Shown in pieces: positions 10,796 through 43,686 of a stretch of 64,000 bases of DNA. The translations under genes were made by a program, and so were the position numbers. The stretch spans positions 3,174 through 67,173 of the forward strand of contig CAWBKH010000013.1 of NCBI GenBank assembly GCA_963789335.1, in the 5' to 3' direction. This DNA is from an uncultured Verrucomicrobiae bacterium (GTDB lineage: Bacteria > Verrucomicrobiota > Verrucomicrobiia > Limisphaerales > UBA11358). Under the pieces are notes generated by a model. That model saw nothing but the letters and a program-made list of their open reading frames with translations. It had not been told where the DNA came from and did no database searches. The first letter of the stretch is position 1; every line of letters begins with the position of its first letter.

Positions 10796-11887
10796 TTAGA
10801 ATGTCACCTTCAACGCCTCGCGCTGGCTGTGTTCGTCGCGCAAATGGCCGTAGGTCTTCATGCACAGCGCGCCGCCATCCTGATGCCCAAGCCAGCGGGA
10901 AACCGTCGGAATGTCCACGCCAGCCTCAATGCAGCGCGTCGCAAACAGATGCCGCAAATCATGGTGCGTGATGCGTTTGACGCCGGCCAGCTTCGCCGCC
11001 CGGTCTATGGACTTCTGGCACTCGAAAACCTGCATTACCGTTTTGTCCGCCGATTCTTTGGGCCGTTCCGCCCGCATTTTTTCCAACAGTTGCCGCAAGC
11101 TGCTATTCAGCGGAATCCAACGATCTTTGCCGTTCTTGGTGATGCGGGTGTGCAGCAATCCCTTTTCAAAATCCACATCGCCCCAAAAAACGTGCCGTGC
11201 TTCGTCTATCCGCAAACCGGAAAACGCCAGAAAACGAAACAGATTCGCGCAATCCTTTGCCTGACCCGCCCCCGATGTTTCAACATGCGTTGCCATTTCC
11301 TGAAATTGCGCCTGGGAGGGCAGGTGCAATTCCTTGGGCTTGACCGCGTGCCGGTCCACGAACCGGGCCGGATTGTCCACCCGGTAGCCGTGTTTAACCG
11401 CGATGTCGAAAATCCGGCGCACCACGCCCAACGCGCCGTTGAAGCGCGTGGGGCTGTAATCCTTGCCGTGGCGCGCCGCCCAATCGTTGCAATCCTTCTG
11501 GCTGATTTTGGCGATGTCGGTCGAATACAATTTGGGCCACGACTTTTCCAGTGCCTTGAGCACTTCCTGTTTGTAAAGTTTGGTGCGCGGCTTGTTGTTG
11601 TGGTCGTCCTGGATTTCCTTTTTGAACATTTCAATAATGACTTCGCCTTTGACCGACTGGCCTTTGTTGAGGGCCAGCCGCCGGTGATCGTGGAGAAAAT
11701 CGGAGAGCTTGAGCTTGGCCACGGTCAGGACGTGCGTTTCGAGGGAGCGGCGAATTAACTTGCCATTGACGCGGACGCGCCCAAAATATGTGCCGCTGGG
11801 TTTGTAGCGGAGCAGGTTTGGATACGGCGTCTTGACCCAATCCACATCTGCATTGCTCTTGGTTTGTAATCGTGATGTCGTTTTCAT
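10796..11887 (-). CDS. Tyrosine recombinase / phage integrase
   Basis: Catalytic motifs FSGLRIDE (R), ITKNGK (K), HDLRHLFAT (HxxR), LGH and KTYGH (Y); N-terminal arm-binding-like GTYFGRVRVNGKLIRRSL. Confidence 0.95.
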   Translation of the reverse strand: MKTTSRLQTKSNADVDWVKTPYPNLLRYKPSGTYFGRVRVNGKLIRRSLETHVLTVAKLKLSDFLHDHRRLALNKGQSVKGEVIIEMFKKEIQDDHNNKPRTKLYKQEVLKALEKSWPKLYSTDIAKISQKDCNDWAARHGKDYSPTRFNGALGVVRRIFDIAVKHGYRVDNPARFVDRHAVKPKELHLPSQAQFQEMATHVETSGAGQAKDCANLFRFLAFSGLRIDEARHVFWGDVDFEKGLLHTRITKNGKDRWIPLNSSLRQLLEKMRAERPKESADKTVMQVFECQKSIDRAAKLAGVKRITHHDLRHLFATRCIEAGVDIPTVSRWLGHQDGGALCMKTYGHLRDEHSQREALKVTF

Positions 11888-11983
11888 GGCTGGAAAGAAC
11901 ATACCATATACAAATCAAGTATGCAACCGCGAAAAATCTCATTGAGAATAACAGCATAGAATGCTTTATTATCAATGTGTTTA

Positions 11984-13183: not shown

Positions 13184-14824
13184 TCAGAACTTGAGGGTCA
13201 GGTCCACCTGATAAATCTCGTAGTTATTGATGGGGTTTATCTGGGGGATGTCCTGACCGCTGCCACCGGTGCCCAGCGAATTGTTGATGCGGCTGGCGTC
13301 GCCCCAGCGGAAAGTGGCGATCAGGTTGTCGGTCAGCCCATAAGCCGCGGCCAGGTAGATGCCTTCCAGATTTTCTTGGCCCTCGAAAAAGTCCGTGTCC
13401 AGCAGATTAGGGTCCAGCGAATATTGTTCGATGTGCTGCCAGTAGGTCTTGATGTCCCACCCGTGCCGCTGCGCAGTTGTTCCATTGGCCATTCCCAAGC
13501 TGCCCCGGCTGGCCAGCTCCAAGCCGATTTGATAGGCTTTCACATCACTCGTTTGCGCGGAAAAAGAATGAGGTATGGCAATGCCGGGGTTGGAAGATAA
13601 AACAGCCTGGTAGGCGGTGGCGGCCTCGCGGGCCCGCTCTGCCCCATCCAGGTTGTAGGCCACATCGCCAAAGAGCCGGGCATCCAGCCGGCTGATTTTG
13701 AAATCGAATTCAAAGGGAACTTCCAACACCAACAGATGGTCGAGGCCGACTTGATTGAAAGGGTAATCGGCGCTTTGATAGCCAATCGCGCCCTGAGGCG
13801 CCGGGTTCGGGTATCCGCTGTAACCGGGCGCGTAGCCACGATTAGAACCACCGAAGTAATAATACGCACCTTCACCGATATAGGGATCGCCGAAATATGG
13901 GGAAAAAGCAGACGCGCTGTTCAGGCCACTCTGCTGAAGTCCAATATAATTGTATAACGTGGCTGCAATCTTCGCGGAAACGTTGGTGGTAATATGATAG
14001 TTAAAGCCGCCCTGCCAGGCAAACATGAAAATATTGTCCGCCTGCTGCCCGGTTCCTGCTGCTGTTCCACTAGGAATCCCCAGTCCTGCGGAGGCGGAAT
14101 TGGGGTCGAAGTCTGCGTAAAGAAATTGCCCAAGCGTGGCAAAGAAGTCCACCGGGCCGACGGTGTATCTCAAACGCTCCGCGAAGCCCTCCGGGCTGAT
14201 GCTCCCATTCCAAACCATAGGCGTGGTGTAGAGCGGATTGGGCATCTTGCCCACCGTCAAATCCACCCAATCCCACGGTCGCCAGCCAAGATACACCTGG
14301 CCAATGTTGATGCCCGAGTTGGATTTGCCGAAAGGGCCTTGGTACGGCGTGCTGCTCGAAGAGGTGCCCAGGGTGACAAAAGAGGAGCGCGGATTGTCGC
14401 CGGTGTCCAGCCTGACGCCATAGTAGAAGTTGTCAAACAGGTCGCCGCGCAAACCCAACCGCACCGCGTAACGAAAGCGCTGGAGGTCAATGCTGTTGCC
14501 CGCGGGGTCTTCCTCATAACGGTCCTCGTAACGCAGCCGGATGTCGCCAAACAGCTCCACGCTCCGAATACCCTGGCTGATCTTCCATTTGGAAGGCGGT
14601 GCCGAGGGCAGTTGCGTTTCGTTGGTGCGGAGCGCCTGCGCCTCGGCCTCGACCTGTTCGGCCTCCTGCTGCGTGACGAAGCCTTTCTTGATAAACAAAT
14701 CCAGCAGCGGGTCGGTGGTATTGGTGGAATCCGCACTCCATCCCCGGGTCGCTACGCTCACGAGTGCCATCATGATAATCCCTGCCAGCCAGGCTGCCCG
14801 GCACCTTGCTTTGATTATTCGCAT
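13184..14824 (-). CDS. Putative porin (Porin_5-type outer-membrane beta-barrel)
   Basis: Signal peptide; LLDLFIKKGFVTQQEAEQV N-domain; FGDIRLRYE...RFRYAVRLGL; C-terminal YQVDLTLKF with terminal Phe. Confidence 0.8.
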   Translation of the reverse strand: MRIIKARCRAAWLAGIIMMALVSVATRGWSADSTNTTDPLLDLFIKKGFVTQQEAEQVEAEAQALRTNETQLPSAPPSKWKISQGIRSVELFGDIRLRYEDRYEEDPAGNSIDLQRFRYAVRLGLRGDLFDNFYYGVRLDTGDNPRSSFVTLGTSSSSTPYQGPFGKSNSGINIGQVYLGWRPWDWVDLTVGKMPNPLYTTPMVWNGSISPEGFAERLRYTVGPVDFFATLGQFLYADFDPNSASAGLGIPSGTAAGTGQQADNIFMFAWQGGFNYHITTNVSAKIAATLYNYIGLQQSGLNSASAFSPYFGDPYIGEGAYYYFGGSNRGYAPGYSGYPNPAPQGAIGYQSADYPFNQVGLDHLLVLEVPFEFDFKISRLDARLFGDVAYNLDGAERAREAATAYQAVLSSNPGIAIPHSFSAQTSDVKAYQIGLELASRGSLGMANGTTAQRHGWDIKTYWQHIEQYSLDPNLLDTDFFEGQENLEGIYLAAAYGLTDNLIATFRWGDASRINNSLGTGGSGQDIPQINPINNYEIYQVDLTLKF

Positions 14825-14871
14825 GAGGTGGGAATGCTGCCGTTCCAATGCGGCGAATTCGTGGCGCGACG

Positions 14872-14888
14872 GTTACAAGTCGGTTACA
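14872..14888 (-). promoter_or_regulatory. Pho-box-like direct repeat upstream of the porin
   Basis: Gene sense TGTAAC-cgact-TGTAAC (11-bp period). Confidence 0.6.
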
Positions 14889-15035
14889 AACCGCAGGCGC
14901 TTTGTTCCAGTCGGTCTGTAGCAATGAAATAAAACCAAAATCAGGAACGAAGGTGGAGCAGAGGCCGCGTTCTTCCAGAAAAACCAATCATCCGGCTTTC
15001 TACCGAAAGCCGCTACGTTTGTAATTTCCAACAGA

Positions 15036-16259
15036 TCACCATCGCAGGACACGATAGCACCGTTGGGGAGTAACGGCGGGATCCGTCAGTTGCAGCATGC
15101 CGCCAGTGCCGGCGTGCAGCGGCAGCGATCGCCAGGCGCTATCGGTGAGGGAGTTTTTATATTCCAACTGATAGACCCGTCCGTTTTGCGTCGGCAGAGA
15201 GACGCTAAAACCGTTCGTTCCAAGAATGGGCTGGGTCAGCACCGCCTGGATCACTGGCGGACCGTTTCCCACCAATGCCAGACTATGCACGTCCCCGGCG
15301 GCAATCTGCACCACATCATTCAAGTTGGTCGGCACGATGTTTTGTAAGTAATCCACGTTAGTATCCGAACCGACACCGGCGCCCCAAGCCCACACGGTTC
15401 CATCGCTCTTCAATGCCAAGCTGTGCCAGCCCCCTGCCGCGATGGCCACGATATTGCTCAAACCCGTGGGAACATTGGTTTCACCGTAAGTGTCCAGCCC
15501 CCACGCAACCACAGTTCCGTTGGCCAGAAGGGCAAGATTGTGAAATCCCCCTGCCGCGATGGCCACGACGTTGCTCAAGCCGGCGGGAATGTTCGTCTCG
15601 CCATCGTCGTTATCTCCCCACGCAAACAAGGTGCCGTCCGACTTCAGCACCAGGTTATGATAGCCACCGGCGGCGATGGCCACCACATTGGACAAACCGT
15701 TCGGAACCGTTCCCTGGCCGTAATCCACATTCACGGAACCTTGCCCGCCCCAAGCGGCCAGGGTGCCATCGGATTTCAAAATCAGACAATGGTAAAAGCC
15801 GCACGCGACGGCCACCACATTGCTTGGATTTCCGGGGACATCAAGCTGTCCGTAGGTATAGTCCCCAACCACAGCCACCGTGCCATCCGACTTCAGTGCC
15901 AGACTGTGCAGTTCCCCGCAGGCAATCGCCACATAATTACTCCCCGCCGGAAAATCGGTCTGGCCCACCGAATCATCGCCCCAGCCTTGCAACGTGCCAT
16001 CGGCCTTCACTGCCAGACTTTGACGCCAACCGCCCGCTACTTGGACGGCATTAGTCAGATTGGAGGGGACCATAGACTGGCCATAATTATTTTGGTCCGG
16101 CGGATTGGAGACGAACGTTCCCGCTCCCCACGCGACCACGGCGGTTCCGGCGCGGACATCCAGCGCCAGACTGAACACCGCCAACATCAAGGCTGGCAAT
16201 TTCAAAAACAATCTGCCCCGGCACCCGGTCACGCATCGTATGCTGCTGATAACGGCCAT
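15036..16259 (-). CDS. Secreted RCC1-repeat beta-propeller protein with a C-terminal 'RxYRV' domain
   Basis: Repeated IAAGGxHxLALKSDGTVxAWG units; C-terminus PTQNGRVYQLEYKNSLTDSAW...GTGGMLQLTD...QRCYRV. Confidence 0.85.
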   Translation of the reverse strand: MAVISSIRCVTGCRGRLFLKLPALMLAVFSLALDVRAGTAVVAWGAGTFVSNPPDQNNYGQSMVPSNLTNAVQVAGGWRQSLAVKADGTLQGWGDDSVGQTDFPAGSNYVAIACGELHSLALKSDGTVAVVGDYTYGQLDVPGNPSNVVAVACGFYHCLILKSDGTLAAWGGQGSVNVDYGQGTVPNGLSNVVAIAAGGYHNLVLKSDGTLFAWGDNDDGETNIPAGLSNVVAIAAGGFHNLALLANGTVVAWGLDTYGETNVPTGLSNIVAIAAGGWHSLALKSDGTVWAWGAGVGSDTNVDYLQNIVPTNLNDVVQIAAGDVHSLALVGNGPPVIQAVLTQPILGTNGFSVSLPTQNGRVYQLEYKNSLTDSAWRSLPLHAGTGGMLQLTDPAVTPQRCYRVLRW

Positions 16260-16318
16260 TGTTCATACCTATAGTTCCCGTGGCTCGGCGCTGTCAAACA
16301 AGCTCATGCGTTTTGCTT

Positions 16319-16335
16319 GTTACAAATGGGTGACG
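16319..16335 (-). promoter_or_regulatory. Pho-box-like direct repeat upstream of the RCC1 gene
   Basis: Gene sense CGTCAC-ccatt-TGTAAC. Confidence 0.55.
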
Positions 16336-16715
16336 GGCTGGCTTGGTGGAAACTGACGACTGAAAGTATGTCCAGGTCCGGTTCGGTCATTTCAATCTGC
16401 CGCGGAAAACAGTCAAGAAGCGTTAAGAGTCGGCGGTTGGCAAGCCGGCGCTCCAGGGTTTTTCAATCCGGCCAACGTTACCTTCTTGCGACGAAGCCCT
16501 CCAAATCTCCAATCCGCGCTCCGGAATCATTTTAAGTTTAATGCAAACAACAACTTACAGTTTCGGCTTTCAAGTCTTAAAATAGACAACCCATGTCCTC
16601 TAACTTGAAGCGAATCAGTGTTGACCCATGATAAAGTTTTGCCTGTTGAACCACTTTGTGGTCAGGCACGGACAAATTGGAGAATGTCAAACAACAGCAA
16701 CAGCATTAAAATTAT

Positions 16716-17522
16716 ATGAAAAAATTAACCAGCGCAGCAATACTGATTGGCGGAGCCATCCTGGCTTCCCAATCCGCGTTCGCACAAACACAGACGTTCA
16801 CGGCGAACGACCTGTACTTTGGGTTTGAAAATTACAATGGGGGCGCGACGGAGGATTACATTATTGATCTCGGCCCGGCTTCCGGCATTGTCGGCGGTTC
16901 CTCCCCGGTCAATCTCAGCGGCGACTTTTCACTGAGCGACTTCAACGCGGTCTTGGGCGGCTCGGCCAGCCTCAATGCGGGCGTGGTTGGCGGCAGTCAG
17001 TACAACCCGCCCGGATGGGACATTTATGCCACGCAGTTGCGCAGTGGCGGACCCGGAAATCCGGCAATGCCAGGCTCCGTTATGAGCACTTCAGAGGGTC
17101 CAATCTCGACGTTTGGCGAATCTCAAATTTCAACCTCGATAGCGGCGCTTTCGACCCTGAATGCGCCCACGGCGGGAATCGGCCTTCTGGACACCAGCCT
17201 GTCGTGGACTTCCGACGTTGAGCCTGCTCCCAATCAGGCCATTCAAACTTTTTATGGAAACTCCGGCATCAATCCCAGCTCGGCCATCGGCAGCGGCGGC
17301 GTGCTTTACGAAGACCTCTGGAAGGCGACGGCCACCTATACCCAAGGCGGTGCCTTTCAATATGAGGGCTATCTTACACTGGACCTCAGCGGCGGCAGCC
17401 CGAACCTGACCTTCACACCCAACCCGACTGCGGTTCCCGAACCGACCGTCCTTGGTTTGCTCGGCGGCGCGGGGTTTTTGCTTCTTTCAATTCGCCGCCG
17501 GTTGAGCCGCAACAAGGCCTGA
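16716..17522 (+). CDS. PEP-CTERM sorting domain protein
   Basis: Signal peptide; C-terminal VPEPTVLGLLGGAGFLLLSIRRR. Confidence 0.9.
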   Translation: MKKLTSAAILIGGAILASQSAFAQTQTFTANDLYFGFENYNGGATEDYIIDLGPASGIVGGSSPVNLSGDFSLSDFNAVLGGSASLNAGVVGGSQYNPPGWDIYATQLRSGGPGNPAMPGSVMSTSEGPISTFGESQISTSIAALSTLNAPTAGIGLLDTSLSWTSDVEPAPNQAIQTFYGNSGINPSSAIGSGGVLYEDLWKATATYTQGGAFQYEGYLTLDLSGGSPNLTFTPNPTAVPEPTVLGLLGGAGFLLLSIRRRLSRNKA

Positions 17523-17597
17523 TTCGGTTTTGCAACTCATAAACACAAAACAGAGAACAAACAAACAAACAAACAATACAACAAGACCAACAAGATT

Positions 17598-18932
17598 ATG
17601 AAAATCAGCACTCACATCACTGCCGCGCTGCTCGCCTTGGGAATCGTCTCCCAGGCCGGCGCCGATCCTGTCGTTTACCTGACCGGTTCAACGGCCTTCC
17701 GCTCCACGGCTGACACAGCGATATTGAACAACACCGGCACCAACAACGGCGGCTTGTTTGATGCCGGTTCCGTCACCTATGTGACGTATGGCAACGCCAA
17801 TCCACTCAGCGCCAATTACCTGGTTGTGCATGGCACCATCAATAACGGCGCAACGCCCGTCTATCTTGACGTGGCGTGGAGCGGTTCCGAAGCCGGCATC
17901 GCCTCAGCCTGCAATACCACGCTTAAAAATACGGATCGCAACGGCAATGTCATCAATCTGGCCGGTTCGCCGGAGCAATGGCTTAACGTGAACGCGGTTG
18001 CGCTGAACGGCAGCGCCATCTCCACCAATCCGCCATCCTACCTGTTGGAAACCAACTCGGACGGAACAGCCGATTACCACGGAGGGGATCTGGCCCAGGC
18101 GGACACGTCCCAAGCGGTTTCCTGGACGCCATTTGTGGCCAACACGCAGCAAGCTATAACAAACTACGGCACTGAAGGCGTGGTCACGTTCGCCATTTCG
18201 AAAAATGTCCAGACAACGCCCTCGCAGGCCTGGCTGGATTGCACAAACATAACCATTCCTCAACTGACTGTCCTGACCGGTGCTGGCTTCCTGCCGGCAG
18301 GTTTCATAAGCGGGAATACAAGCGACGACAGCCAGTTCGTTTACCTTACGGGACGTAACCGGGGTTCCGGCACGCGGATGAACTTCTTGGCAGACCAACA
18401 TTACGGCACCAAAAACGGCGTCCAACAGTATTCCGTCGGCTTGGGAATTGAGGAGCCGGCGAATAACACGCTCATCCTCACCAACGAGGGCAACAACGGT
18501 TATGAAAGCGGCGGTGGAACTGTAAAAGCGCTGTTCATCCCCGGCAGTTGCCAGCAGACCGATCCATTTACCGGAAACAGCGGTTGGTTTGTCATCGGCT
18601 ATGCCAGTCCGGGAGATCTTCTGAATCCTGCCAACACTGTGGGCGTCAATAATTGGCTGACCGTAGATGGCGTGCCTTCTAATAACCAGACCATTGAGAA
18701 CGGCCAATGGTGGTATTGGGGCCATGAACATCTGTATGGCAAATACCAGATCAGCGGCATTCAGCAAACCTTGGGCACCGATCTGTTTAATGCCATCGTC
18801 AACACGCTTAACGTTCAGCAGCTTGGACTCCTTCCGGGAAATCACGATAACGCCATAGCCAAGCAATACATGAATTGCACCAAGAGCAGCGACTCGGCTT
18901 ATCCCACCCCAAGCGCCCCGGGTAATCCTTAA
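17598..18932 (+). CDS. Secreted PstS/DING-like periplasmic-binding-fold protein
   Basis: Signal peptide; N-terminal LTGSTAF, GRNRGSGTR (compare PstS R-x-x-GSGT), SGG and IGY motifs. Confidence 0.55.
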   Translation: MKISTHITAALLALGIVSQAGADPVVYLTGSTAFRSTADTAILNNTGTNNGGLFDAGSVTYVTYGNANPLSANYLVVHGTINNGATPVYLDVAWSGSEAGIASACNTTLKNTDRNGNVINLAGSPEQWLNVNAVALNGSAISTNPPSYLLETNSDGTADYHGGDLAQADTSQAVSWTPFVANTQQAITNYGTEGVVTFAISKNVQTTPSQAWLDCTNITIPQLTVLTGAGFLPAGFISGNTSDDSQFVYLTGRNRGSGTRMNFLADQHYGTKNGVQQYSVGLGIEEPANNTLILTNEGNNGYESGGGTVKALFIPGSCQQTDPFTGNSGWFVIGYASPGDLLNPANTVGVNNWLTVDGVPSNNQTIENGQWWYWGHEHLYGKYQISGIQQTLGTDLFNAIVNTLNVQQLGLLPGNHDNAIAKQYMNCTKSSDSAYPTPSAPGNP

Positions 18933-18972
18933 TCCGCTGGCAGCAAAGGGTTGAAAAGCGGTTTAACAACAC

Positions 18973-19004
18973 GGCCAGCGCGGACACCCTCCGCGCTGGC
19001 CTTT
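18973..19004 (+). terminator. Rho-independent terminator
   Basis: 12-bp perfect stem GGCCAGCGCGGA-caccc-TCCGCGCTGGCC followed by TTT. Confidence 0.65.
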
Positions 19005-19051
19005 CGGCTTATGCGAACGTATAATCAAAAGCCTTCCGAGTTGCCGCTAGG

Positions 19052-19137
19052 TTTTGGAGTGCGCCAGCCCTCTGGCGCTTTCCACACTGCGGCGGCATCG
19101 AGCGGCAGAGGACTGCCGCAGTCCAAGACGCTGCCGC
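19052..19137. repeat. REP doublet (GGAGTGCGCCAGCCCTCTGGCGCT family)
   Basis: The same unit recurs at 50468 and 52457; units are palindromic and in inverted arrangement. Confidence 0.75.
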
Positions 19138-19173
19138 GCCCGCGTTGGCCGATAGTTTAAACGAAGTATAAAA

Positions 19174-20133
19174 GTGAAATTAAAGATTTCCATCTGGCTG
19201 AATATGACTTTGCTCGGCGGCCTGATTTTTGTCCTGATGAACCAGCGAAAGGAAGAAACCACCGCCGCGCCGGTTTTATCTGAAGCCAGACCGCCGTTGC
19301 GGGCGATTGCCACGCCCGCAGCTCCGGCGTCTTCGGACATGGAAACCGCGCCTTTTCATTGGAGCCAGCTTGTGTCTGCGAAGGATTATCGGGCTTACAT
19401 CGCCAATCTGCGCGCCATCGGCTGTCCGGAACCGACCATCGAGGACATTGTCAGGGGCGACACCGACCGGGCGTTTGCCTGGGAACGCAGTCAACTGGAT
19501 CTGGACGGCGCCGGCACGGGCCCGTGGTCGCAGGCGCGGGAGATGCAATTGGTGGCCAGCTTGTTGAGCGGCCAGCCGCCGGTTGAAACTGCCGCCTTGG
19601 CGCAAAGCGCGGAGAATCCGATGGATGGAAACAGCGGCAACAACGAAGCCTCTCAAACGGCCACCCCGCCGCAAGTTGCGGCGAATCAAACGCCGGAGAA
19701 TACGGGTGGCATGGTTGCTCAAGTTCCTGTTCCGTCACAAAATGCCGAAAGGACAGCGCCATCCTACCCGTTGTTCCTCCAGAATGTGAATTGGAGCGCC
19801 TTGGGGTTCAATGCCGACCAGCAGGCCGCCATCGCGCAGGTGCGGCAGCAGTTCTTGGGCGAGATTAACGGTCTGAGCCAAAACCCCAACGATCCGGCGA
19901 GCCAGAATTCTAATCCATCGGTTCCCGACTCCAACAACCCGGCTCCCCTGACGCAATGGCAAACGGCCCTGCAAAACGCCGATGCCCAGTTGCTCGCGTC
20001 GCTGGGCAGCGATGGTTACGAGGCTTATGTGCAACAGCAATACCATAGCTGGTATCAACCCCAGGTGGTCGCGGCCAATGCGGAAGGAAAGCCTCTGGTA
20101 ATTAACCCGGATGCGTTCTCGGTTTCACCGTAA
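19174..20133 (+). CDS. Membrane-anchored hypothetical protein
   Basis: N-terminal hydrophobic segment; PFHWSQL...DYRAYIANLRAIGCPEPTIEDIV motif; helical C-terminus. Confidence 0.7.
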   Translation: MKLKISIWLNMTLLGGLIFVLMNQRKEETTAAPVLSEARPPLRAIATPAAPASSDMETAPFHWSQLVSAKDYRAYIANLRAIGCPEPTIEDIVRGDTDRAFAWERSQLDLDGAGTGPWSQAREMQLVASLLSGQPPVETAALAQSAENPMDGNSGNNEASQTATPPQVAANQTPENTGGMVAQVPVPSQNAERTAPSYPLFLQNVNWSALGFNADQQAAIAQVRQQFLGEINGLSQNPNDPASQNSNPSVPDSNNPAPLTQWQTALQNADAQLLASLGSDGYEAYVQQQYHSWYQPQVVAANAEGKPLVINPDAFSVSP

Positions 20134-20286
20134 CTTTTATTTGAGGGGAGTGGCTGAACCTGGCGCAGAACACACGAAATGAGACCTCTGCAAAAACCTC
20201 GTTTGACTGTAATTGAGTGCCGCAAACTCCGCTAAATTGAAGAGTGCGGCTTTCTCCCGAAAGCCGCCACGTTTGCTTTGCGCCTG

Positions 20287-21222
20287 TCACTCGCTGCGCT
20301 TTTGTTGGTTCGTAGGATTTTGGGCGTGAAACTCGGCCACCATCCGCTCCGCTTCGGCAAATTGTTCGGGCGTGAGCGCATGATTTAGGTTGTATTCTTC
20401 AAAGGAATGCCGGCCGGTTGCGTTCCCCTGTTCTGCGCTCAACGCGAACCATTTGTAAGCCCGCACCTTGTCATGGGGAAGCCCGCCGTCGCCATCCTCG
20501 TACATCAAGCCCAGGTTGGCCTGGGCCATGGCGTCGCCCCTTTCGGCCGCCCGGCGATACCATTTGGCCGCCTCCATCAAATCCGTCTTCACGCCCCAGC
20601 CGTTTTGATACAAAAAAGCCAGATTGTTCATGGCGCCCACGTAACCCTGTTCAGCCGCCTTACCGAGCCATCTGGCCGCCTCGGCATAGTTGACATGTTT
20701 GGTGTCACCGGGATATTCGCCGTTGAGATAGAATTGCCCCAAGGCGTTTTGCGCATAGGTCTGGCCGTGTTCGGCGGATTTCTGCCACCAAGCCACGGCT
20801 TCATCAAAATCCTGTGGCACGCCGTTGCCGTGGGCATAAGCGTAACCCAGGCAGTATTGAGCCAGCGAATCTCCCTGCGCGGCCGCCTTGCGATACCACT
20901 GGAGCGCTTGCGGAAAATCCTGTTTGACGCCCAGGCCGCGCGCGTAATAAGAGCCGAGGGCGGTCTGGGCATGGGCGTACCCTTGATCGGCGGACTGGCG
21001 GAGGTACTCAGCCGCCTTGGCATAATCCTGCGGAACCCCTTCTCCATTTTCATAACACTGGGCAAGCTCATACTCCGCCCGGGCATTGCCTTGGCCTGCC
21101 GCTGACTGGACGGCTTGAAAATGGGAGCGCGGCGAAGAAACACAACCGCCCGTGGCCACAATCAGTAATGCCGATGCCAGCCGGATGCCCGCTATTGGAT
21201 ATCTACGCATGTTTAATTCCAT
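20287..21222 (-). CDS. Sel1-repeat (TPR) putative lipoprotein
   Basis: About seven AQxxLGxxYxxGxGVxxD..A..W...AA.QG repeats; lipobox-like ATGGC. Confidence 0.9.
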   Translation of the reverse strand: MELNMRRYPIAGIRLASALLIVATGGCVSSPRSHFQAVQSAAGQGNARAEYELAQCYENGEGVPQDYAKAAEYLRQSADQGYAHAQTALGSYYARGLGVKQDFPQALQWYRKAAAQGDSLAQYCLGYAYAHGNGVPQDFDEAVAWWQKSAEHGQTYAQNALGQFYLNGEYPGDTKHVNYAEAARWLGKAAEQGYVGAMNNLAFLYQNGWGVKTDLMEAAKWYRRAAERGDAMAQANLGLMYEDGDGGLPHDKVRAYKWFALSAEQGNATGRHSFEEYNLNHALTPEQFAEAERMVAEFHAQNPTNQQKRSE

Positions 21223-21349
21223 ATTGTGACGGGATTCAGATTATTGGGCGCCAGCGCTTCAAACAAGTTACGATTCGGAGTCGAAGGAAAGAAGGTTTGT
21301 TACAATCACGTGATGCGCTGCAAAGTTTGATTCGTCCCGAAGCCGTTTC

Positions 21350-21376
21350 TGTTATAAGCTGTAAACCCCCAGTCAC
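21350..21376 (+). promoter_or_regulatory. Weaker Pho-box-like repeats upstream of the 21491 gene
   Basis: TGTTAT-aagc-TGTAAA-ccccc-AGTCAC (10- and 11-bp periods). Confidence 0.3.
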
Positions 21377-21490
21377 TTGTAAAAACCGCCCATGCGTCCG
21401 ATTATTTGAAGTTCATGTCCTGACACAGGTAGTTTGAATCGCCAATCTTGGCTAACCTTTCCTCTCAAAATTATGACAAACAAAGGAACA

Positions 21491-22534
21491 ATGAAAAAAA
21501 TCTTTCAAAAAATCAACCGGCGGTGTTTTAAACTAACAATCCTGGCAGTCCTCCTATTGCCTGAAATTGCCAGCGCCCAATATTTTACTTATGGACCTGG
21601 CGATTTGGTGGCCGGTTTTCGAAAGCCCAATGTCGGCTCCTACGAGCTGGTGGTGAATGTCGGCAACATTTCCAACTTTCTAGTCCAGCCGATAGGCACG
21701 GTCATCACCCTCTCGCCTACCGCCACGTTTTCTCCCAGCCAGCTTTCGGATGCTTTCCCCAGTTTCACCAATCTGAATTGGTCGGTGTCGGGGTCGTTTG
21801 GCATTAGCGGCACCTGGGATGGATTTGCGCAAAACACAATCTGGTACACCCTGCCGCGCTCCAATCCCAACGTCCAAACCACGCCCCCATCGCGCTATAC
21901 CCTTTATGTCCAGTCACCCGTTAAACTGGACATAACCAATCCAGGCATTGAATTTGCCGCCAATAACATTGGCAGCAACTTGGGAGCGACCAACCAGGAT
22001 AACAACATGTACTTGGTGCGAGAACCGGTCAACGGCGCTTACAGCAGTGAAAATTACTCCGCCTATGTCGAGGATCCAAATGACAATACCCAGGCGACTT
22101 TTCAAGGTCAGTTGCCCTCCACCATCGAAAACGTGACGCCCACCCCGTTCACCTCGGCGGTGGCTTCCGTCTCGGACCTGTATCAATCCGTCCCGACCGG
22201 TTACACGGATCCCAATACCGGCACCAACAACGGCACGGCCTATTATGTCGGTTATTTCACCTTGAAGTATGATGGTTCCATGACGTTCACCCGGGCCGTG
22301 ACCGAACCGCCGGCGCCGCAGATTACGTCCGTCACCCGCGCAAGCGGCACGACCACCATCTATTTTACGACGGTGAGCGGGGCGACCTACACGCTTTATC
22401 ACTCAACCGCGCTGACGACCCCGCTGGCGAGTTGGACGTCTTCGTCAACGCTCACGGGTGATGGCGGCACTGATCATTTGACGGATTCCTCGACGGATGC
22501 CGCGCGGTTCTACCGGGTGAGCGCGCATTATTAA
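21491..22534 (+). CDS. Secreted protein homologous to the PEP-CTERM protein at 16716 but ending in an 'RFYRV' C-terminal domain
   Basis: RBS AAGGA at 21483; signal peptide; shared DL-x-x-GF and Y-x-GY-x-TL...TFT motifs; C-terminus FTTVSGATYTLY...W...GDGG...LTD...RFYRV. Confidence 0.8.
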   Translation: MKKIFQKINRRCFKLTILAVLLLPEIASAQYFTYGPGDLVAGFRKPNVGSYELVVNVGNISNFLVQPIGTVITLSPTATFSPSQLSDAFPSFTNLNWSVSGSFGISGTWDGFAQNTIWYTLPRSNPNVQTTPPSRYTLYVQSPVKLDITNPGIEFAANNIGSNLGATNQDNNMYLVREPVNGAYSSENYSAYVEDPNDNTQATFQGQLPSTIENVTPTPFTSAVASVSDLYQSVPTGYTDPNTGTNNGTAYYVGYFTLKYDGSMTFTRAVTEPPAPQITSVTRASGTTTIYFTTVSGATYTLYHSTALTTPLASWTSSSTLTGDGGTDHLTDSSTDAARFYRVSAHY

Positions 22535-25843: not shown

Positions 25844-26192
25844 CGCATCAGCGCCCGCGGATTTCTGTTTTGCCGCCCTCCGCCCTCCGCCCTCCGTCTT
25901 CTGCCCCTTTCTCAAACCTCAGCTCCTTGCCTCGCTGTAGTGAACGAAGGCGGGTCAACCAACAACCTTCAACCAGCTCGCTATTGACGCGCGCGCCGCT
26001 CCGGCCCACTCTCGTAGTCATGGCGGGTCAGAAGAAACCGTTGGCTCACGAAGAATCCATCCTGGAGATGGCCATCATACGGATCGCGTCGTCAAGGATG
26101 GCGGTTTTGCCGAACCGCAAAGAGATTTTTTGGAATTCCACGCCACCAACGTGTTCTTGAAAAGAGAAATTAGTGGATGAACCGACCAGACC

Positions 26193-27028
26193 TTGAGTTT
26201 TAACCCACCACTTTCAAATGCAGAGGTTGAAGCTGCTTTCCGCAGCAGCTTCACCAAAATCGCATCCATAGCTAGAGGAACTGGCGGTCAGGGTGTTGTG
26301 TTTAAGGCCGAATCGAAACAGCAAGACAACGTGCCATCGCAAACAGTTGCCCTGAAGATTTACTATCCAGGATCGCTGGTGGAAAGAACACACAGAGAAG
26401 TCCAGGCGCTTGCCAGATTGAAATGTGACCACATCGTAAAACTCCACGCCGCCGGCCACACCAATTTACGTGGACAAAATTGCATGTTTGTAGCCACTGA
26501 ATTCATTGAGGGAGAGGTTTTATCTGCTGTGCTCTCTCGCGGTCATCTGCCCACGGGTCAGGTAGCTCGGATTGGCCGCGAAATTGCATTGGCCATTGCA
26601 GCCTTATGGGTTGAGCGCTTGGTGCATCGAGATATTAAGCCGAATAACATTATGTTTGCTCACAATGGTCGTGCGGTGCTGATCGATCTTGGAGTTGCGC
26701 GCCACCTATCGCTGGGTGCGCTCACAACTCTTGGTAAAACTTGGGGGACTGATGGCTATATGTCACCAGAGCAAGCAAACGCGCTCCGGCAATTGTCATG
26801 TAAGTCTGATATTTTCTCCCTGGTGTCGTGCTTCAAGAGCTGTTGCTCGGCATCCATCCAACGGGCAACAATCAATTGGCATTCGCCGGAGGTGGGGTTA
26901 AATGTGCTGCCTTGAAGTTCGGGATGCCAATTCCATTTGAGCTTCTATTGAATTCAATGCTTGTGCTTAATCCACAGAACCGCCCAAATCCGCTTCATGT
27001 CGCCGATTGTTTCCTAAAATACATATAA
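26193..27028 (+). CDS. Hanks-type Ser/Thr protein kinase with an apparent 1-nt frameshift at about 26822
   Basis: GGQGVVF, VALK, HRDIKPNN, LIDLG, GTDGYMSPEQ and SDIFSL motifs. Adding one G at 26822 restores ...SLGVVLQELLLG... and joins the 26828..27028 ORF. Confidence 0.85.
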
Positions 27029-27038
27029 GCAAACGAAT

Positions 27039-28358
27039 ATGAATAACGCATTCTACGCACCCGCGCGTTACAAAATGGCCATCCCTGGCAATGTTCAGGG
27101 AATCTCTGGTGGTCTGATTTTCCCAGCAGGTGTTCCGTCGCCGACCTTAATTCGGCGGGGCCGAAAGGATTTGAGTAAAAAATACCCATATCTCACGCAA
27201 CGACTATTGGATCCACAACTCTATCTTGCGGAGCTTCCTGCCGCAACGTGTCGGAAGGCGTGTGTAAATTTAGCTAGTTACGGCTGGTTTCTAACAGAAG
27301 GAATCAAGCCGTTCGACAGCTCAAAACAAGATCAAACAGAATGGAGACAAGAAGCATTGGGAAAGATTCATCGTGCTTGGAAGGGAACAATTCCGACCGA
27401 TAAGCCGCGCATCCGAACGGCGATTCTTAAATCCGTCCTTTTTCAACAGAACATCGATTGCGAAGCAATTATTCTCCCATCTCCTCTTACCGCCGAGTTG
27501 TCGAGCGACTATACAGTTGAACTCGGCTGGCTTGATAGCGGGTTGGAAGTTGCCGAAACGATTGCGCCTGGCATGGATCGGATTGCATCCGTTGCGTTAT
27601 CAGACACTTCCTTGCGCGGATTAGACCCATGGAAAAACGACTTACTGACGGTAATCATTGATCAGATTACTGCTCGCACACCGGAGGGGGTTTATATCGT
27701 GATCGAACAATCGAATGAACACGGTTACTACTGCACTCATCCTAACACGGTTGGTTCTTTATTACGGTTGATTCATCAGTTTAGAGAAGCGGGATTAAAA
27801 CGAATCATTGTTGGCCCAATCGGATTGGCCGGTCTCCTTGCAACAGCAGTTGGCGCGGATGTTTGGTCCGCTGGCTGGTATCGGGGGGAACGCAGGGTGA
27901 TGCTTGCTGACTTTACAGATCAAATGGGGATGGCGGTTCCGACCTACTACACCCATGGTCTGGCTGGAGAAATTCATCTGGAAGGAGACCTCGACCGTTT
28001 GGTCCAAAGAGGTTTTCTCAAGCGCCTGGAAGACGAAACCCAAGCTAGTAACGGCTTAATAACAGCTTTGAGGGCTCGTCGCAGTGTCGGCACAGTGCCT
28101 GAATGGCGGCATGGCCAATCTAACGTCGAGGCTGCAAGGGAACATTTTTACACTGTTGCTGTTCGCGAGACCGCAAAATTAAATGGGCAACCGAAAACAG
28201 CTTGCTTACGTTACGCAAACGAGTGGCTGAAAGGAGCCGAGCAACTCGCTTCTGATTTATACAGCGTTGGGGGATTTAATCCTCGGACAGAACTTAACCA
28301 CCAGGCCGCTTGGCGTCAGGCTTTTGGTCAATTCTTAGAAGTGGTCGGGGCTTCGTAA
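27039..28358 (+). CDS. Hypothetical protein, predicted alpha/beta (TIM) barrel, reminiscent of P4 Beta/sce7725-type proteins
   Basis: 439 aa starting 10 bp after the kinase; alternating strand/helix pattern (LLDPQLY, IILPSP, GVYIVIE, IIVGPIG, GADVWSAGW). The family call is tentative. Confidence 0.6.
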   Translation: MNNAFYAPARYKMAIPGNVQGISGGLIFPAGVPSPTLIRRGRKDLSKKYPYLTQRLLDPQLYLAELPAATCRKACVNLASYGWFLTEGIKPFDSSKQDQTEWRQEALGKIHRAWKGTIPTDKPRIRTAILKSVLFQQNIDCEAIILPSPLTAELSSDYTVELGWLDSGLEVAETIAPGMDRIASVALSDTSLRGLDPWKNDLLTVIIDQITARTPEGVYIVIEQSNEHGYYCTHPNTVGSLLRLIHQFREAGLKRIIVGPIGLAGLLATAVGADVWSAGWYRGERRVMLADFTDQMGMAVPTYYTHGLAGEIHLEGDLDRLVQRGFLKRLEDETQASNGLITALRARRSVGTVPEWRHGQSNVEAAREHFYTVAVRETAKLNGQPKTACLRYANEWLKGAEQLASDLYSVGGFNPRTELNHQAAWRQAFGQFLEVVGAS

Positions 28359-29062
28359 CCATTTGAAGCAGGACGTGGCGTTTTGTGCAACGCCGCAACT
28401 TTTCGAATTAGCCATATTCGTTCGGCGGTAATCGGTTTCACGTTCTTTGTTGCCAGAATAAGCTCCGTTTTTTTTGCGCTTACGGAAATCAATCCAACTC
28501 GTTCTCGACGGCACGCGTTTTGGAGTCTCGGATTGCGGTCAACCACGGTCTTAGGTAGGGCAACATACGAGTGATTTGAAAATCGGTGATATTCCTTAGC
28601 TTGTCTGATTGCATCTTTCCACCTTCGTAGTTTCGCTTCAACCGAAACGATTTTGATTTTTGATGGGAATGCGTCTCTCCGCACGACCAGAGCCCCGGCA
28701 CGATTGACTCGTAGCAATTTGTCGCGGACCAAGCGAAGTACAGCACGTTCTAAACTGGTTTCCCTCGCATATAAAAGGCGCGCCAGTGTTCTTCGCCCCA
28801 ATGGCCCGCGCTTGAGAAGTGTCGCCAGTATTTCACACTCAAATAACGACGGAACGCGGTTGGAATGTTTCGGAGGCCTTGCATTAGCACGAGTAGCAAT
28901 CAAAACAAGATCCGGTACAATCATTCCAACCGGTAGCTTCATAAATCGAACTACCTTTTTCAGCGTCTTTGAAACAAAATGCGCAGAAATTTGTTTTTCA
29001 ACAATCCACAGGAGATGGTCTTCCAGGGCAAATTCAATTTGGCCAGTCGTCTTGCGATTCAT
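28328..29062 (-). CDS. PD-(D/E)XK nuclease-like protein with an inserted winged-helix domain
   Basis: E...GMIVPDLVLI, then a wHTH (ILATLLKRGPLGRRTLARLL...LERAVLRLVRDKLL), then IVSVEAKLRRWKDAIRQAKEY...SYVALP. Start set at MNRKTT (29062). Confidence 0.65.
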   Translation of the reverse strand: MNRKTTGQIEFALEDHLLWIVEKQISAHFVSKTLKKVVRFMKLPVGMIVPDLVLIATRANARPPKHSNRVPSLFECEILATLLKRGPLGRRTLARLLYARETSLERAVLRLVRDKLLRVNRAGALVVRRDAFPSKIKIVSVEAKLRRWKDAIRQAKEYHRFSNHSYVALPKTVVDRNPRLQNACRRERVGLISVSAKKTELILATKNVKPITAERIWLIRKVAALHKTPRPASNGYEAPTTSKN

Positions 29063-29260
29063 CTGCGTAGAGGTTTGCACATTTTCGCACACATGCGAAG
29101 AGAGAAAATTCGGGGGCAGTCCCGCGCATTGACACATTCCCCCCTGTCCGGTTGGACGACGAGGGCGCAGAGATTTGAGAGTTTTATTTGGGCGGCCTGT
29201 ATTGCCGATGTTTTGATGAATCCGATTACATGAAGGGGCCAGTCCGGCATTTTGAGCCAG

Positions 29261-29982
29261 CTTCGTTCTTGCCGGGCGGCGAATCGTGAAAATTCGTGAA
29301 ATCCGTGTCAGCAAGATGCTTTGTGTTCCAGTTCCTCGGTTGTGTGCTTCAATTTGGTTGCTTTGAGTGTTTGGCGTTCCCTTCAAGTGATTGGCGGGTT
29401 TGGCCTCCGGGCGGGAAGAAAAACGGCGCTGGCGGATGCTGTACGGCTGAACGCTGCCAGCGCCGTTAACTATTCGACCTGGGCTTGAATCGAACGCGAA
29501 AGAGCAAATCACATTGGTACCATTCGGTCAAAGACGGGACCGCAACATGACTGTGACGTTTGGGAGACGTTCGGCGATTAACCGCGTTTTGACTGGACTT
29601 TTAAGCCGGCTTTGTGCCTAATCCAATCTGTATGAATATCTCGCTCGTGAAATCCGCGCCGCAAGGCGATTTCATTGAAGTCAGTGCTCTATCCCGTGGG
29701 TGGGAAACCAAATTTCAAACGCTGGTCAGTCAAAAAAGGGCCATCAAGTACGACATGTACCCGATGCCAGGCATCCCAATGGAATTAATGAGCCGGCTTC
29801 ACCAACAAGGTTATCAGGACCTGATTTTAGAGAATGACCGGTGGCAGCACTTCTTGGTTCCAAAGTCAAATTGAGTCGCCGGCAGTTGAGCGACCTGAAT
29901 GGGCAAGCGCCTGTCATGCCATAGCCCCTCCACTCAAGGTCAGTTCCTCATTTTAAACCATCTTCGCTCTTGCCGGGCGGCG
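29261..29982 (+). repeat. 21-bp direct repeats (29261..29281 and 29962..29982) flanking the 80-aa ORF copy 2
   Basis: CTTCG(T/C)TCTTGCCGGGCGGCG with one mismatch. Confidence 0.55.
29632..29874 (+). CDS. 80-aa hypothetical protein, copy 2
   Basis: 76% identical to 12726..12968. Confidence 0.7.
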   Translation: MNISLVKSAPQGDFIEVSALSRGWETKFQTLVSQKRAIKYDMYPMPGIPMELMSRLHQQGYQDLILENDRWQHFLVPKSN

Positions 29983-30167
29983 GCAGAAGGAAGGCTGAAG
30001 GCTAAAGCTAAAGGCTAAAACTCCCATCGCGGAAATCCGGTTTATGGAGCAGCTTCGCGAGATGGGCCAGCGGGTGCAGATGTTTTTGGGATTGGCCGAT
30101 ATGGTGTCTCAGTTGCCCGGCTTCCCACCGGCGTCGCACGTTGACGGGGTAGCGAGAAAAATCGAAG

Positions 30168-36282: not shown

Positions 36283-36315
36283 AACGCCATTGCTGCTGGA
36301 ATAAATTCGTTTTTT

Positions 36316-36332
36316 GTAACATTCAGGTGACA
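36316..36332 (-). promoter_or_regulatory. Pho-box-like direct repeat directly upstream of tpsA
   Basis: Gene sense TGTCAC-ctgaa-TGTTAC, between the tpsB stop and the tpsA start. Confidence 0.6.
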
Positions 36333-36334
36333 AG

Positions 36335-41725: not shown

Positions 41726-42598
41726 ATGTTTGTTCAACCCCTGTTCGCCGCAAATGCCGCGGTGTACGCCATTCAAAACGCCACCCCTGAGGGCAAGATC
41801 ACCGTCATCGTGCTGCTGATCCTGTCGTTGTTCAGTTGGACGATCATCATCACCAAGTTCCGCCAGTTGATGATCGCGCGCAGGGCGACCAAAATGTTTT
41901 TTGCCGCCTACAACTCCACGCGCGATCCGCTCGACATCCAGCGCAAGGGGGAGACATTCGACGGCGCGCCCGCCTACCAGCTTTACATCCGCGGTGCGGA
42001 TGAACTGGTGTATCAATTGAAAAATAATCCGGTGCAGGTTGAAATCGTTGCCCCCACAACTCCGACGGAAGGGGTGGAACATACCAACACCGATTTTCTT
42101 GCCCGGTCCACGGCGGTGAAGGTCAGCATGGCGTCATTCGATGCGGTGAAGGTGATTTTGGAAGAAGCCGCCAGCGGGGAGGCGATGTCGTTGGAAAAGG
42201 GCATGATTGTGCTGTCCACGGCAGTCGCAGGCGGGCCGTTCATCGGGTTGCTCGGTACGGTCTGGGGCGTCATGTCCACCTTCGCCGGTATCGCCGAAAG
42301 CAAAGCCGCCACCCTTACGGCCATGGCACCCGGTGTGGCGGCCGCCTTGGTCGCCACGGTCACCGGTCTATTGGTGGCCATCCCGGCCATGTTCGCGTAC
42401 AACTTCATGGTTACCACCATCCGTGCCATTACGCAGGAGTTGGACGGGTTTGCCAGCCGCTACGCCAATCAGATTGAACACGTTTATGTGGATCACCGTC
42501 CGCTCGCCGAGGAAATCCGGAACGCCAATGAAGTGCTGGCCGGTCGCATCGTCGGCGCGCTGAAAGACAACGAAGCACACGCGCTCGTTGAATCATGA
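41726..42598 (+). CDS. exbB: MotA/TolQ/ExbB proton-channel protein
   Basis: GPFIGLLGTVWGVMSTF...APGVAAALVATVTGLLVAIPA. Confidence 0.9.
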   Translation: MFVQPLFAANAAVYAIQNATPEGKITVIVLLILSLFSWTIIITKFRQLMIARRATKMFFAAYNSTRDPLDIQRKGETFDGAPAYQLYIRGADELVYQLKNNPVQVEIVAPTTPTEGVEHTNTDFLARSTAVKVSMASFDAVKVILEEAASGEAMSLEKGMIVLSTAVAGGPFIGLLGTVWGVMSTFAGIAESKAATLTAMAPGVAAALVATVTGLLVAIPAMFAYNFMVTTIRAITQELDGFASRYANQIEHVYVDHRPLAEEIRNANEVLAGRIVGALKDNEAHALVES

Positions 42599-43011: not shown

Positions 43012-43014
43012 CCC

Positions 43015-43682: not shown

Positions 43683-43686
43683 TTTT

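Follow-up and report, generated by a model that had tools for sequence, protein, structure and literature searches.

The window, by which we mean the whole 64,000-nucleotide stretch of verrucomicrobial DNA analysed here, contains the genes and features collected in Table 1. Two of the encoded proteins, P0001 and P0003, have unrelated bodies and a C-terminal tail in common. This tail of ~72 residues ends in R-F/C-Y-R-V followed by 3-5 further residues and the stop codon. It had been pointed out in an earlier note on this DNA, and the alignments uphold it: residues 334-404 of P0001 and 292-362 of P0003 are 32% identical (BLASTP E 3e-4), and profiles built from tail copies of the same genome match the two tails with E values of 2e-13 and 9e-16, respectively (also 2.5e-17 and 5.4e-19). 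The body of P0001 is recognised by Pfam RCC1_2 (2e-50) and WD40_RLD (8e-49), and P0004 has zero matches in Pfam and NCBIfam.

Table 1. Genes and features of the locus, with coordinates in the window.
Feature	Position	Strand	Remarks
Porin_5-type outer-membrane porin	13184..14848	-	Adjoins RCC1 gene; Pfam Porin_5 3.5e-32
P0001, RCC1-repeat beta-propeller, 407 aa	15036..16259	-	Signal peptide and FN3-like tail
FN3-like 'FYR' tail of P0001, residues 333-407	15039..15263	-	...QRCYRVLRW-stop; profile matches
P0002, PepA-like exported protein, 268 aa	16716..17522	+	PEP-CTERM tail
PEP-CTERM sorting domain of P0002	17433..17519	+	VPEP, hydrophobic helix, RRR
P0004, exported protein, 444 aa	17598..18932	+	Member of the conserved cluster
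P0005, membrane-anchored, low-complexity	19174..20133	+	
Sel1-repeat lipoprotein-like protein	20287..21222	-	Pfam Sel1 2.7e-59
P0003, distant PepA-like paralogue with FN3-like tail	21491..22534	+	347 aa, likely start MKKIFQ
FN3-like 'FYR' tail of P0003	22304..22531	+	...AARFYRVSAHY-stop; six beta strands

The same note had P0002 end in a PEP-CTERM signal and share a body with P0003, and both statements hold. The C-terminus of P0002, VPEPTVLGLLGGAGFLLLSIRRR, matches the PEP-CTERM model TIGR02595 (18.4 bits, cut-off 16) and scores 18.2 bits with Pfam PF07589, below the cut-off of 20.7; the V-P-E-P motif is invariant across 30 P0002 homologues. The bodies of P0002 and P0003 are distant homologues: compared directly, BLASTP aligns them only weakly (69 residues, E 0.001), and comparison of profiles from 30 homologues each by hhalign gives a probability of 96% and an E value of 3.4e-9, with 216 columns aligned over both bodies. 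In all, 262 homologues of P0002 were found and 200 of P0003, every one of the latter with the tail at its end. The floc_PepA model NF033554 aligns with P0002 over 3-258 of 261 positions at 27.9 bits (equivalog cut-off 80) and does not match P0003, so that P0002 is only distantly like the flocculation protein PepA. PepA of floc-forming bacteria belongs to the PEP-CTERM/exosortase sorting system (PMC9850573). A fold search with the PepA-like body of P0003 (full-length AlphaFold model, pLDDT 85) returned no neighbour in the PDB.

The AlphaFold model of the P0003 tail (pLDDT 94.9) is a six-stranded FN3-like sandwich whose last strand (F) reaches the final residue, and the full-length model repeats this fold. 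Its best Foldseek matches are FN3 domains (E >= 0.02, TM 0.5-0.6), and the top 50 are all FN3 or Ig domains. The tail profile also matches the 'Fn3-like protein' of PDB entry 3mpc (E 0.004) and cross-matches canonical FN3 arrays, while the FN3 model PF00041 matches 0 of 47 tails, even at E <= 1. Two weak matches to the FN3-like Tissue_fac family were seen among the 47 tails searched. Of the seven strands A-G of an FN3 domain only six are present, the chain stopping on the sixth; in tandem copies, where the median gap is 8 residues, there is too little room for an F-G loop and a G strand. The best-conserved positions are the surface-facing Arg and the aromatics of R-F-Y-R. The profile further bears a weak likeness to part of the CBM32/discoidin chitosan-binding modules (E 6e-5), which we set aside as a sub-motif and not domain homology, since the match covers ~60 residues of a ~140-residue fold.

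A profile search of the 4.35-Mb genome retrieved 146 copies of the domain in 137 ORFs, or ~3% of its ORFs. The copies are terminal (<=12 residues from the stop codon) in 123 cases, or 84%, a pattern far beyond chance, so that some 120 exported proteins end in the domain. In 87 of the 123 terminal copies, an aromatic-aromatic-R motif is found 4-5 residues ahead of the stop. The last position is taken by P or Q in 80%, against a background of 16%; copies sampled across the phylum do not keep this preference. Of 161 Verrucomicrobiota genomes, 64 encode the domain, and a genome of the same order as this one has 0 copies. The terminal bias goes with the domain: in a sample of 40 copies from as many further Verrucomicrobiota genomes, the stop codon lies 0-11 residues past the domain end in 35 (88%). 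Worldwide, 84,075 protein clusters contain a match to the domain. It is not recognised by any model in Pfam or NCBIfam, and searches of the literature turned up neither a C-terminal domain of this kind from Verrucomicrobiota nor relevant exoproteome data. Matches to the Amuc_1099 family (NF042425) turned out to be a TSP3-like linker, 'DGDGMxNxxEYxAGTNP', that precedes some tails, and not the tail itself. The tail belongs to a very large, uncatalogued family of beta-sandwich modules that probably derive from FN3.

The earlier note had held that a domain often found internally would speak against a sorting signal, and this objection applies in part: 23 of the 146 copies here lie at the N-terminus, within the protein or as the inner member of a tandem pair, and 5 of the 40 across the phylum are internal. 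The N-terminal copies precede FGE-sulfatase-like and cytochrome-c bodies. In the family worldwide, head-to-tail arrays of 2-27 copies also occur, with the last copy of multi-copy proteins extending to the C-terminus in 130 of 150. A free C-terminus is therefore not needed for folding or use of the domain.

The bodies that end in the tail are diverse. Terminal copies sit on at least 60 unrelated body clusters, which include GH18, GH53, apiosidase/GH5, alpha-1,3-glucanase, amylase with malectin and pro-kumamolisin, as well as RCC1, PD40, LRR and NHL proteins. An N-terminal signal peptide was found in 81 of 123 carriers by a strict heuristic and in ~15 more by eye, and a lipobox-like motif in only 2. 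The linker ahead of the tail is an ordinary Pro-rich stretch, in which no conserved cleavage motif was found. In this genome, PEP-CTERM signals are found on small proteins (143-330 aa), whereas the FN3 tail is also borne by large enzymes (median body 554 aa).

The earlier note had proposed that proteins with signal peptides carry a swappable domain at their end. This is upheld, and the alternation of the tail with PEP-CTERM on the same body proved much more general than the window shows. Members of the P0002 family carry either PEP-CTERM or the FN3 tail at the same junction, on bodies that are 50-60% identical, and both forms are kept within one conserved gene cluster. At least four further body families of the genome make the same exchange at the same junction. 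One natural pair, 55% identical, lies at C6:125300-126178 (PEP-CTERM) and C6:118384-119421 (FN3 tail). The PEP-CTERM proteins coexist in this genome with two exosortase genes (PF09721, 136 and 131 bits, above the cut-off). Since the swap takes place at the same junction and one conserved cluster keeps a paralogue of each kind, the tail probably specifies a destination other than the exosortase route.

We also considered the neighbours of the tail genes as possible partners. ExbB/ExbD, at 41.7-44.1 kb, are 19 kb from the tail genes. The nearness of this Ton motor, to which the earlier note had attached importance, is not meaningful: with 137 carriers in 4.35 Mb, 2.0 are expected in every 64-kb window, so that the tail genes stand at genome-average density and proximity to ExbB/ExbD carries no weight. 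On the same ground, the Ton motor and TpsB were both discarded as tail partners. The suggested link to outer-membrane barrels fared somewhat better, in that the Porin_5 adjacency recurs in the orthologous cluster of another genome, though for this locus only; a nearby TpsA gene recurs there as well. At L061, the porin ortholog (59% identical) adjoins the RCC1-tail ortholog, which is 60% identical to P0001, tail included, and a P0004 ortholog (56% identical) occupies the same position. A 451-aa gene, similar in length to P0004, lies at the corresponding position of L063. Genes at the P0005 position of the related clusters L061, L062 and L063 resemble P0005 in length, and a minus-strand gene of L061 at the position of the Sel1 gene has no Pfam match on record.

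No co-occurring partner was found among the candidates examined, which were secretins and DUF1559 proteins. The DUF1559 prepilin-like proteins were rejected as an obligate partner because, at E <= 1e-8, they are absent from most of the tail-rich genomes in other classes. Secretin genes number 3-9 in every tail-rich genome tested, with four in this genome, and 0-3 in tail-free ones; genome size and lineage confound this difference, which we take as permissive only.

Taken together, the tail is a good candidate for a protein-localisation module. Our preferred reading, which we hold to be about an even call, is that it acts as a folded localisation or docking module and not as a linear cleavable signal. 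After Sec export of the carriers and removal of the signal peptide, the tail would fold in the periplasm and engage a partner through its F strand with the conserved Arg and aromatic residues. Such a partner might hand the cargo to an outer-membrane exit, in the manner of a type-II-style secretin, or might retain it on the cell surface or within the exopolysaccharide matrix. What we infer here is the docking itself, which partner is bound and where the cargo ends up. There is a precedent in the pectate lyases PelI and Pel3, in which an FN3 domain carries type-II secretion determinants (PMC7949064).

A bolder form of the docking proposal is speculative and, in our estimate, rather unlikely. Here the FN3 tail without its G strand would serve as address label for an undescribed surface-display or outer-membrane export route of Verrucomicrobiota, parallel to exosortase/PEP-CTERM, and would correspond in function to the T9SS CTD. 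The tail would be read by a receptor that adds a beta strand at the open edge of strand F, much like donor-strand complementation of chaperone-usher pilins. Gene clusters with one paralogue of each kind would use the two labels to send two related subunits to separate layers of the envelope or matrix.

The tail might instead be a passive structural FN3 module that stabilises its protein, acts as a spacer or aids solubility. It would then be terminal only because a small autonomous domain is easily added to the 3' end of genes in this lineage. FN3 modules are common as passive spacers in secreted enzymes and common in bacterial glycoside hydrolases, and both the apparent FN3 homology of the tail, with its cross-matches to canonical FN3 arrays, and its autonomous fold, which works in any position and in arrays, fit this explanation. 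A spacer at the very end of a protein, however, spaces nothing, and the terminal bias holds across the classes of the phylum. Nor would a passive module be expected to have surface-facing Arg and aromatic residues as its best-conserved positions. That a real sorting signal has been replaced repeatedly at the same junction, and that one conserved cluster retains both forms, indicates a function linked to localisation, and we consider a purely passive role unlikely.

The earlier note had likened the tail to the sorting signal of the T9SS. What stands of this is a swappable terminal module on exported proteins; the N-terminal, internal and tandem copies and the lack of a partner among the candidates examined go against it. 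In its strict form, with recognition by an outer-membrane translocon, cleavage and possibly a covalent link between cargo and surface, the explanation would account for the extreme C-terminal position of 84-88% of copies in the genome and the phylum, for the T9SS-like cargo (hydrolases, proteases and adhesin-like repeats), for the ~3% of ORFs that carry the tail and for its interchange with PEP-CTERM, a proven sorting signal. Yet the family is neither single-copy nor always terminal, as a T9SS CTD is, and its long head-to-tail arrays are unlike the behaviour of that domain. P0001 and P0003 have no match to PF18962 or TIGR04183 at E <= 0.1, and 0 of 47 tails match these models (Pfam E <= 1, NCBIfam E <= 0.1). 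The model has six strands and not seven, no T9SS CTD is among its 50 best fold matches, and the Pro-rich linker offers no conserved cleavage motif. No translocon candidate was found either, although the search for SprA is uninformative, PF14349 (SprA_N) being without a match in the source genome and equally silent in control genomes. We know of no T9SS machinery in this lineage. Altogether, a strict T9SS-type signal is distinctly improbable.

Least probable is a carbohydrate-binding module that aims enzymes at external substrates and not at the cell's own envelope, a role suggested by the many glycoside hydrolases among the carriers, by the CBM32/discoidin likeness and by tandem copies, which are typical of binding modules, but opposed by the ~60 of ~140 residues to which that likeness extends, by the same tail on RCC1, PD40, LRR, NHL, protease and PepA-like bodies without an obvious polysaccharide substrate, and by the PEP-CTERM swap, which is not expected of a substrate-binding module.

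Verrucomicrobiota are major polysaccharide degraders of soil, water and the gut, and to our knowledge little is known about how they move enzymes to the surface or into the medium. If the tail decides location, it would define the set of exported enzymes of a whole phylum, imply a missing machinery and provide a portable tag for display or secretion. The repeated exchange with PEP-CTERM supplies natural paired constructs, in which the same body carries one tail or the other, so that the question is open to direct test. Should the tail prove passive, a model of the family would still improve the annotation of tens of thousands of proteins.

Among known systems, PEP-CTERM (TIGR02595, PF07589) is found at the same place as the tail on homologous bodies of exported proteins, in the same genomes and the same cluster; it is, however, a ~25-residue motif plus transmembrane helix, cut by exosortase, whereas the FN3 tail is a soluble folded domain. 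The T9SS CTD of Bacteroidota resembles the tail in being a small folded beta-sandwich at the end of signal-peptide proteins, dozens to hundreds in each genome, on cargo as varied (hydrolases, proteases and adhesins), but it is a seven-strand Ig-like sandwich, while the tail has six strands in what is probably FN3 topology, is not strictly terminal and can occur in tandem. With bacterial FN3 domains (PF00041; PDB 3mpc) the tail probably shares the fold class, and it has their conserved core pattern of a Trp in strand B, a Tyr in strand C and Tyr-x-Val in strand F; it differs from them in lacking the F-G loop and the G strand and in its strong C-terminal bias. The FN3 domains of Pel3 and PelI (PDB 3b4n and 4u4b), which superimpose on the tail model with an rmsd of 2.6-2.8 Å over about 68 residues, are likewise FN3 modules on secreted enzymes. 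They are N-terminal and complete in fold, and their determinants are loops that act together with the catalytic domain (PMC7949064), whereas the tail is biased to the C-terminus and ends on its sixth strand.

The last ~72 residues of the RCC1 protein P0001 and of the FN3-tail protein P0003, whose bodies are unrelated, align with 32% identity (E 3e-4), and both proteins end in R-x-Y-R-V plus 3-4 residues. By BLASTP, P0003 is barely similar to the PEP-CTERM protein P0002 (E 0.001). We gathered 262 homologues of P0002 and 200 of P0003 and aligned 30 of each for profiles; hhalign then matched the two families with a probability of 96% (E 3.4e-9, 216 columns), from the signal peptide through the '...GYFTL...G.MTFT' end of both bodies. 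The shared tail and the shared body therefore confirm the observation of the earlier note, and its PEP-CTERM assignment for P0002 also stands, the TIGR02595 score exceeding the cut-off. P0002 further aligns end to end with the NCBIfam flocculation protein PepA, far under cut-off (27.9 versus 80 bits). Read from its likely start, P0003 has a classical signal peptide ending ASA/Q.

Coordinates of the features discussed (a slash marks the end of the body)
Feature	Location	Strand	Remark
Tyrosine-recombinase-like ORF	10796-11902		368 aa; upstream of cluster; HHDLRH...Y-type C-terminus by eye
Seeming conserved cluster, window	13184-22534
Seeming conserved cluster, L061	4739-13073
Seeming conserved cluster, L063	334-5026
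P0001, RCC1-repeat propeller protein	15036-16259	-	Pfam RCC1_2 2e-50
P0002, 268-residue exported protein	16716-17522		C-terminus VPEP, hydrophobic helix, RRR; TIGR02595 18.4 bits, cut-off 16
P0004	17598-18932		No family match
P0005	19174-20133		No family match
Sel1-repeat protein	20287-21222	-
P0003	ORF 21434-22534		Likely start, MKKIFQ methionine at 21491
Low-GC stretch	26000-30000		GC 0.495-0.50; 0.55-0.59 on either flank
Protein-kinase-like ORF	26193-26915		In low-GC stretch, with a 439-aa ORF and a 394-aa minus-strand ORF
Two-partner secretion pair	31465-38914		TpsA 1622 aa, TPS domain, Lys-rich tail; TpsB 859 aa, two ShlB-type POTRA matches, weak ShlB/Omp85 barrel match
ExbB and ExbD genes	41726-44106		On either side of the next ORF
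Pro/Lys-rich ORF	43015-43485		156 aa
Body family with both endings	C6:125300 vs C6:118384		55% identity; ...YMEV/VPEP vs ...SMTI/AGLTLNIQ...FFRLQQ
Body family with both endings	C1:415551 vs C2:1702462		55% identity
Body family with both endings	C6:46336 vs C2:1210867		48% identity
Body family with both endings	C1:350708 vs neighbour C1:348724		35% identity
TSP3-like linkers, among others	C6:79822-80013; C7:39608-39739; C3:24036-24188
Short neighbouring tail ORFs	C2:472855-479359		207, 149, 198 and 531 aa
Tandem tail modules, genome of same genus	G004:C4:240724-243270		At least four, in a 3280-residue open frame

The exchange of the tail with PEP-CTERM is the part that adds most to the finding. 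By their C-terminal tail, P0002 homologues with 50-60% identity can be divided into two types, both of which occur in the same assemblies: the PEP-CTERM form has ~256 residues and ends ...LTFTP-x-AVPEP-helix-RRR, and the FN3-tail form (305-348 residues) runs from ...LTFTP into a Pro-rich linker and an FN3 tail with an RFYRVQGQ end. By regex, 43 PEP-CTERM proteins, each 143-330 aa long, are encoded in the window's own genome, which has two exosortases as well as the tails; at least four further body families in it carry both endings and diverge precisely where the body stops. Several of its NHL-repeat PEP-CTERM proteins likewise match FN3-tailed NHL bodies. The alternative endings proposed for one body are thus a recurrent arrangement.

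From the gene orders of two loci in other genomes, the cluster with one paralogue per tail type is conserved. L063 reads PEP-CTERM form, 451-aa gene, 289-aa gene and FN3-tail form, the middle two being similar in length to P0004 and P0005. L061 reads TpsA, PEP-CTERM form, P0004 orthologue, a short gene at the P0005 position, a minus-strand gene at the Sel1 position, P0003 orthologue, RCC1-tail orthologue and Porin_5, and the orthologues compared share 56-60% identity with the window genes. Besides a PEP-CTERM protein and an FN3-tail protein, both PepA-like, the cluster comprises an exported 444-aa protein (P0004), a membrane-anchored low-complexity protein, an opposite-strand Sel1 protein, an FN3-tailed RCC1 protein and a Porin_5 porin. 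The TpsA gene of L061 lies directly upstream of it, and relative to the window the RCC1-porin pair of L061 flanks the cluster's other end and is encoded on the other strand. P0004 has no Pfam or NCBIfam match and an orthologue in the cluster at 56% identity; its motifs 'LTGSTAFRS', 'SGSEAGIA' and 'RNRGSGTR' resemble, by eye only, PstS-type periplasmic binding proteins, and a phosphate-porin-like gene lies nearby.

The link to a Ton motor suggested previously was not upheld: the Ton genes lie 19 kb from the tail genes, and the genome as a whole averages two tail genes per 64 kb. The ORF between ExbB and ExbD has no Pfam match and could encode a short TonB-like protein. The low-GC stretch may be an island inserted between the PepA-like cluster and the TpsA/TpsB pair.

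Iterative HMM searching of every six-frame ORF in the 4.35-Mb genome found 146 tail copies in 137 ORFs, the same number as an independent profile search. The C-terminal position expected by the earlier note held for 123 copies, which lie within 12 residues of a stop codon (112 of them with the stop within 2 residues of the alignment end), and failed for 23, which are N-terminal, internal or the inner member of a C-terminal pair; the N-terminal ones come right behind the signal peptide, before FGE-sulfatase-like or cytochrome-c bodies. An aromatic-aromatic-R motif followed by 4-5 residues closes 87 of the 123 terminal tails, and the final residue is P in 51% and Q in 28% (long ORFs at large: 10% and 6%). 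Once the tail is removed, BLAST groups 113 bodies into 60 clusters, and 20 representatives include GH18, GH53, apiosidase/GH5, alpha-1,3-glucanase, amylase plus malectin, pro-kumamolisin, RCC1, PD40, BspA-type LRR plus PKD, NHL and LamG. As the earlier note held, carriers are signal-peptide proteins: 81 of 123 by a strict heuristic and ~15 more obviously by eye, the remainder being contig-edge or split fragments; a lipobox-like motif occurs in just two. A TSP3-like linker, 'D-x-D-G-D-G-M-x-N-x-x-E-Y/W-x-A-G-T-N/D-P', precedes a subset of tails, with sub-threshold matches to NF042425 (Amuc_1099 family pilus-like system protein) at positions 106-153. Each of the short neighbouring ORFs on C2 ends in a tail, some lacking signal peptides, which looks like an RCC1-type carrier gene cluster broken by frameshifts or assembly errors.

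Outside this genome the tail occurs in 20 of 21 close relatives, with per-genome counts that reach at least 150, and one genome of the same order has none. Across the phylum it is unevenly distributed (64 of 161 genomes, 44 of 87 genera; E ≤ 1e-5), and several classes show large expansions. Of 40 top-scoring copies, each taken from a different other genome, 35 have the stop codon 0-11 residues past the tail and 5 are internal; P/Q was not kept as last residue. When 1.84 billion representative proteins were searched with the profile, 84,075 clusters matched (E ≤ 0.001). The best 150 are multi-copy proteins (2-27 copies each), as summed scores would lead one to expect; the last copy is at the C-terminus in 130, and the median spacing of successive copies is 8 residues. 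Some database proteins, P0262 and P0251 for example, are nothing but head-to-tail arrays of the unit.

That the tail is a folded localisation or docking module stands, in our judgement, at about even chances. Terminal bias across classes, exported and varied cargo and a conserved surface R-F-Y-R strand argue for it; the strongest argument is that it has repeatedly been exchanged for a genuine sorting signal, both forms being kept adjacent. The tail might act where cargo leaves through the outer membrane, or it might tether cargo to the surface or matrix. In Pel3/PelI, type-II secretion determinants reside in an FN3 domain (PMC7949064), and PEP-CTERM proteins of the PepA type attach exopolysaccharide to cells (PMC9850573). 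A passive FN3 module is unlikely. A strict cleaved secretion signal is also improbable: the likeness to the T9SS CTD suggested earlier survives in that the tail is swappable with PEP-CTERM and mostly terminal, but the non-terminal copies and the long arrays of other genomes indicate that it can fold and serve with its C-terminus not free, and the P/Q ending is not conserved across the phylum. A substrate-binding CBM is the least probable reading. The tail profile matches a sub-motif of CBM32 modules (E 6e-5). No partner was found among secretin, DUF1559 and SprA searches and the Ton genes. Secretin genes number 3-9 in all tail-rich genomes and 0-3 in tail-free ones, a difference confounded by size and lineage; DUF1559 prepilin-like proteins were rejected as an obligate partner, their distribution not tracking the tail; and SprA gave no match in the window's genome, the control genomes being equally silent.

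AlphaFold2, given the P0003 tail and 47 paralogues, predicted six strands (pLDDT 94.9), the last of which, RFYRVSA, extends to the final residue, and the full-length P0003 model repeats them. The top Foldseek PDB matches, all weak (E ≥ 0.02, TM 0.5-0.6), belong to the FN3 class: neogenin, DCC, cytokine receptors, Tencon and the Pel3/PelI FN3 domain. The top 50 include no T9SS CTD. The sequence profile matches the 'Fn3-like protein' 3mpc (E 0.004). No Pfam-A or NCBIfam model covers the tail, and none of the 47 tails matches fn3, Por_Secre_tail or any tail model. Canonical FN3 arrays, which are among the strongest database matches, continue past the Y-x-V strand into the usual 'G.S.PS' G strand, whereas the tail family ends there; both this and the 8-residue array spacing speak for an FN3 derivative without strand G.
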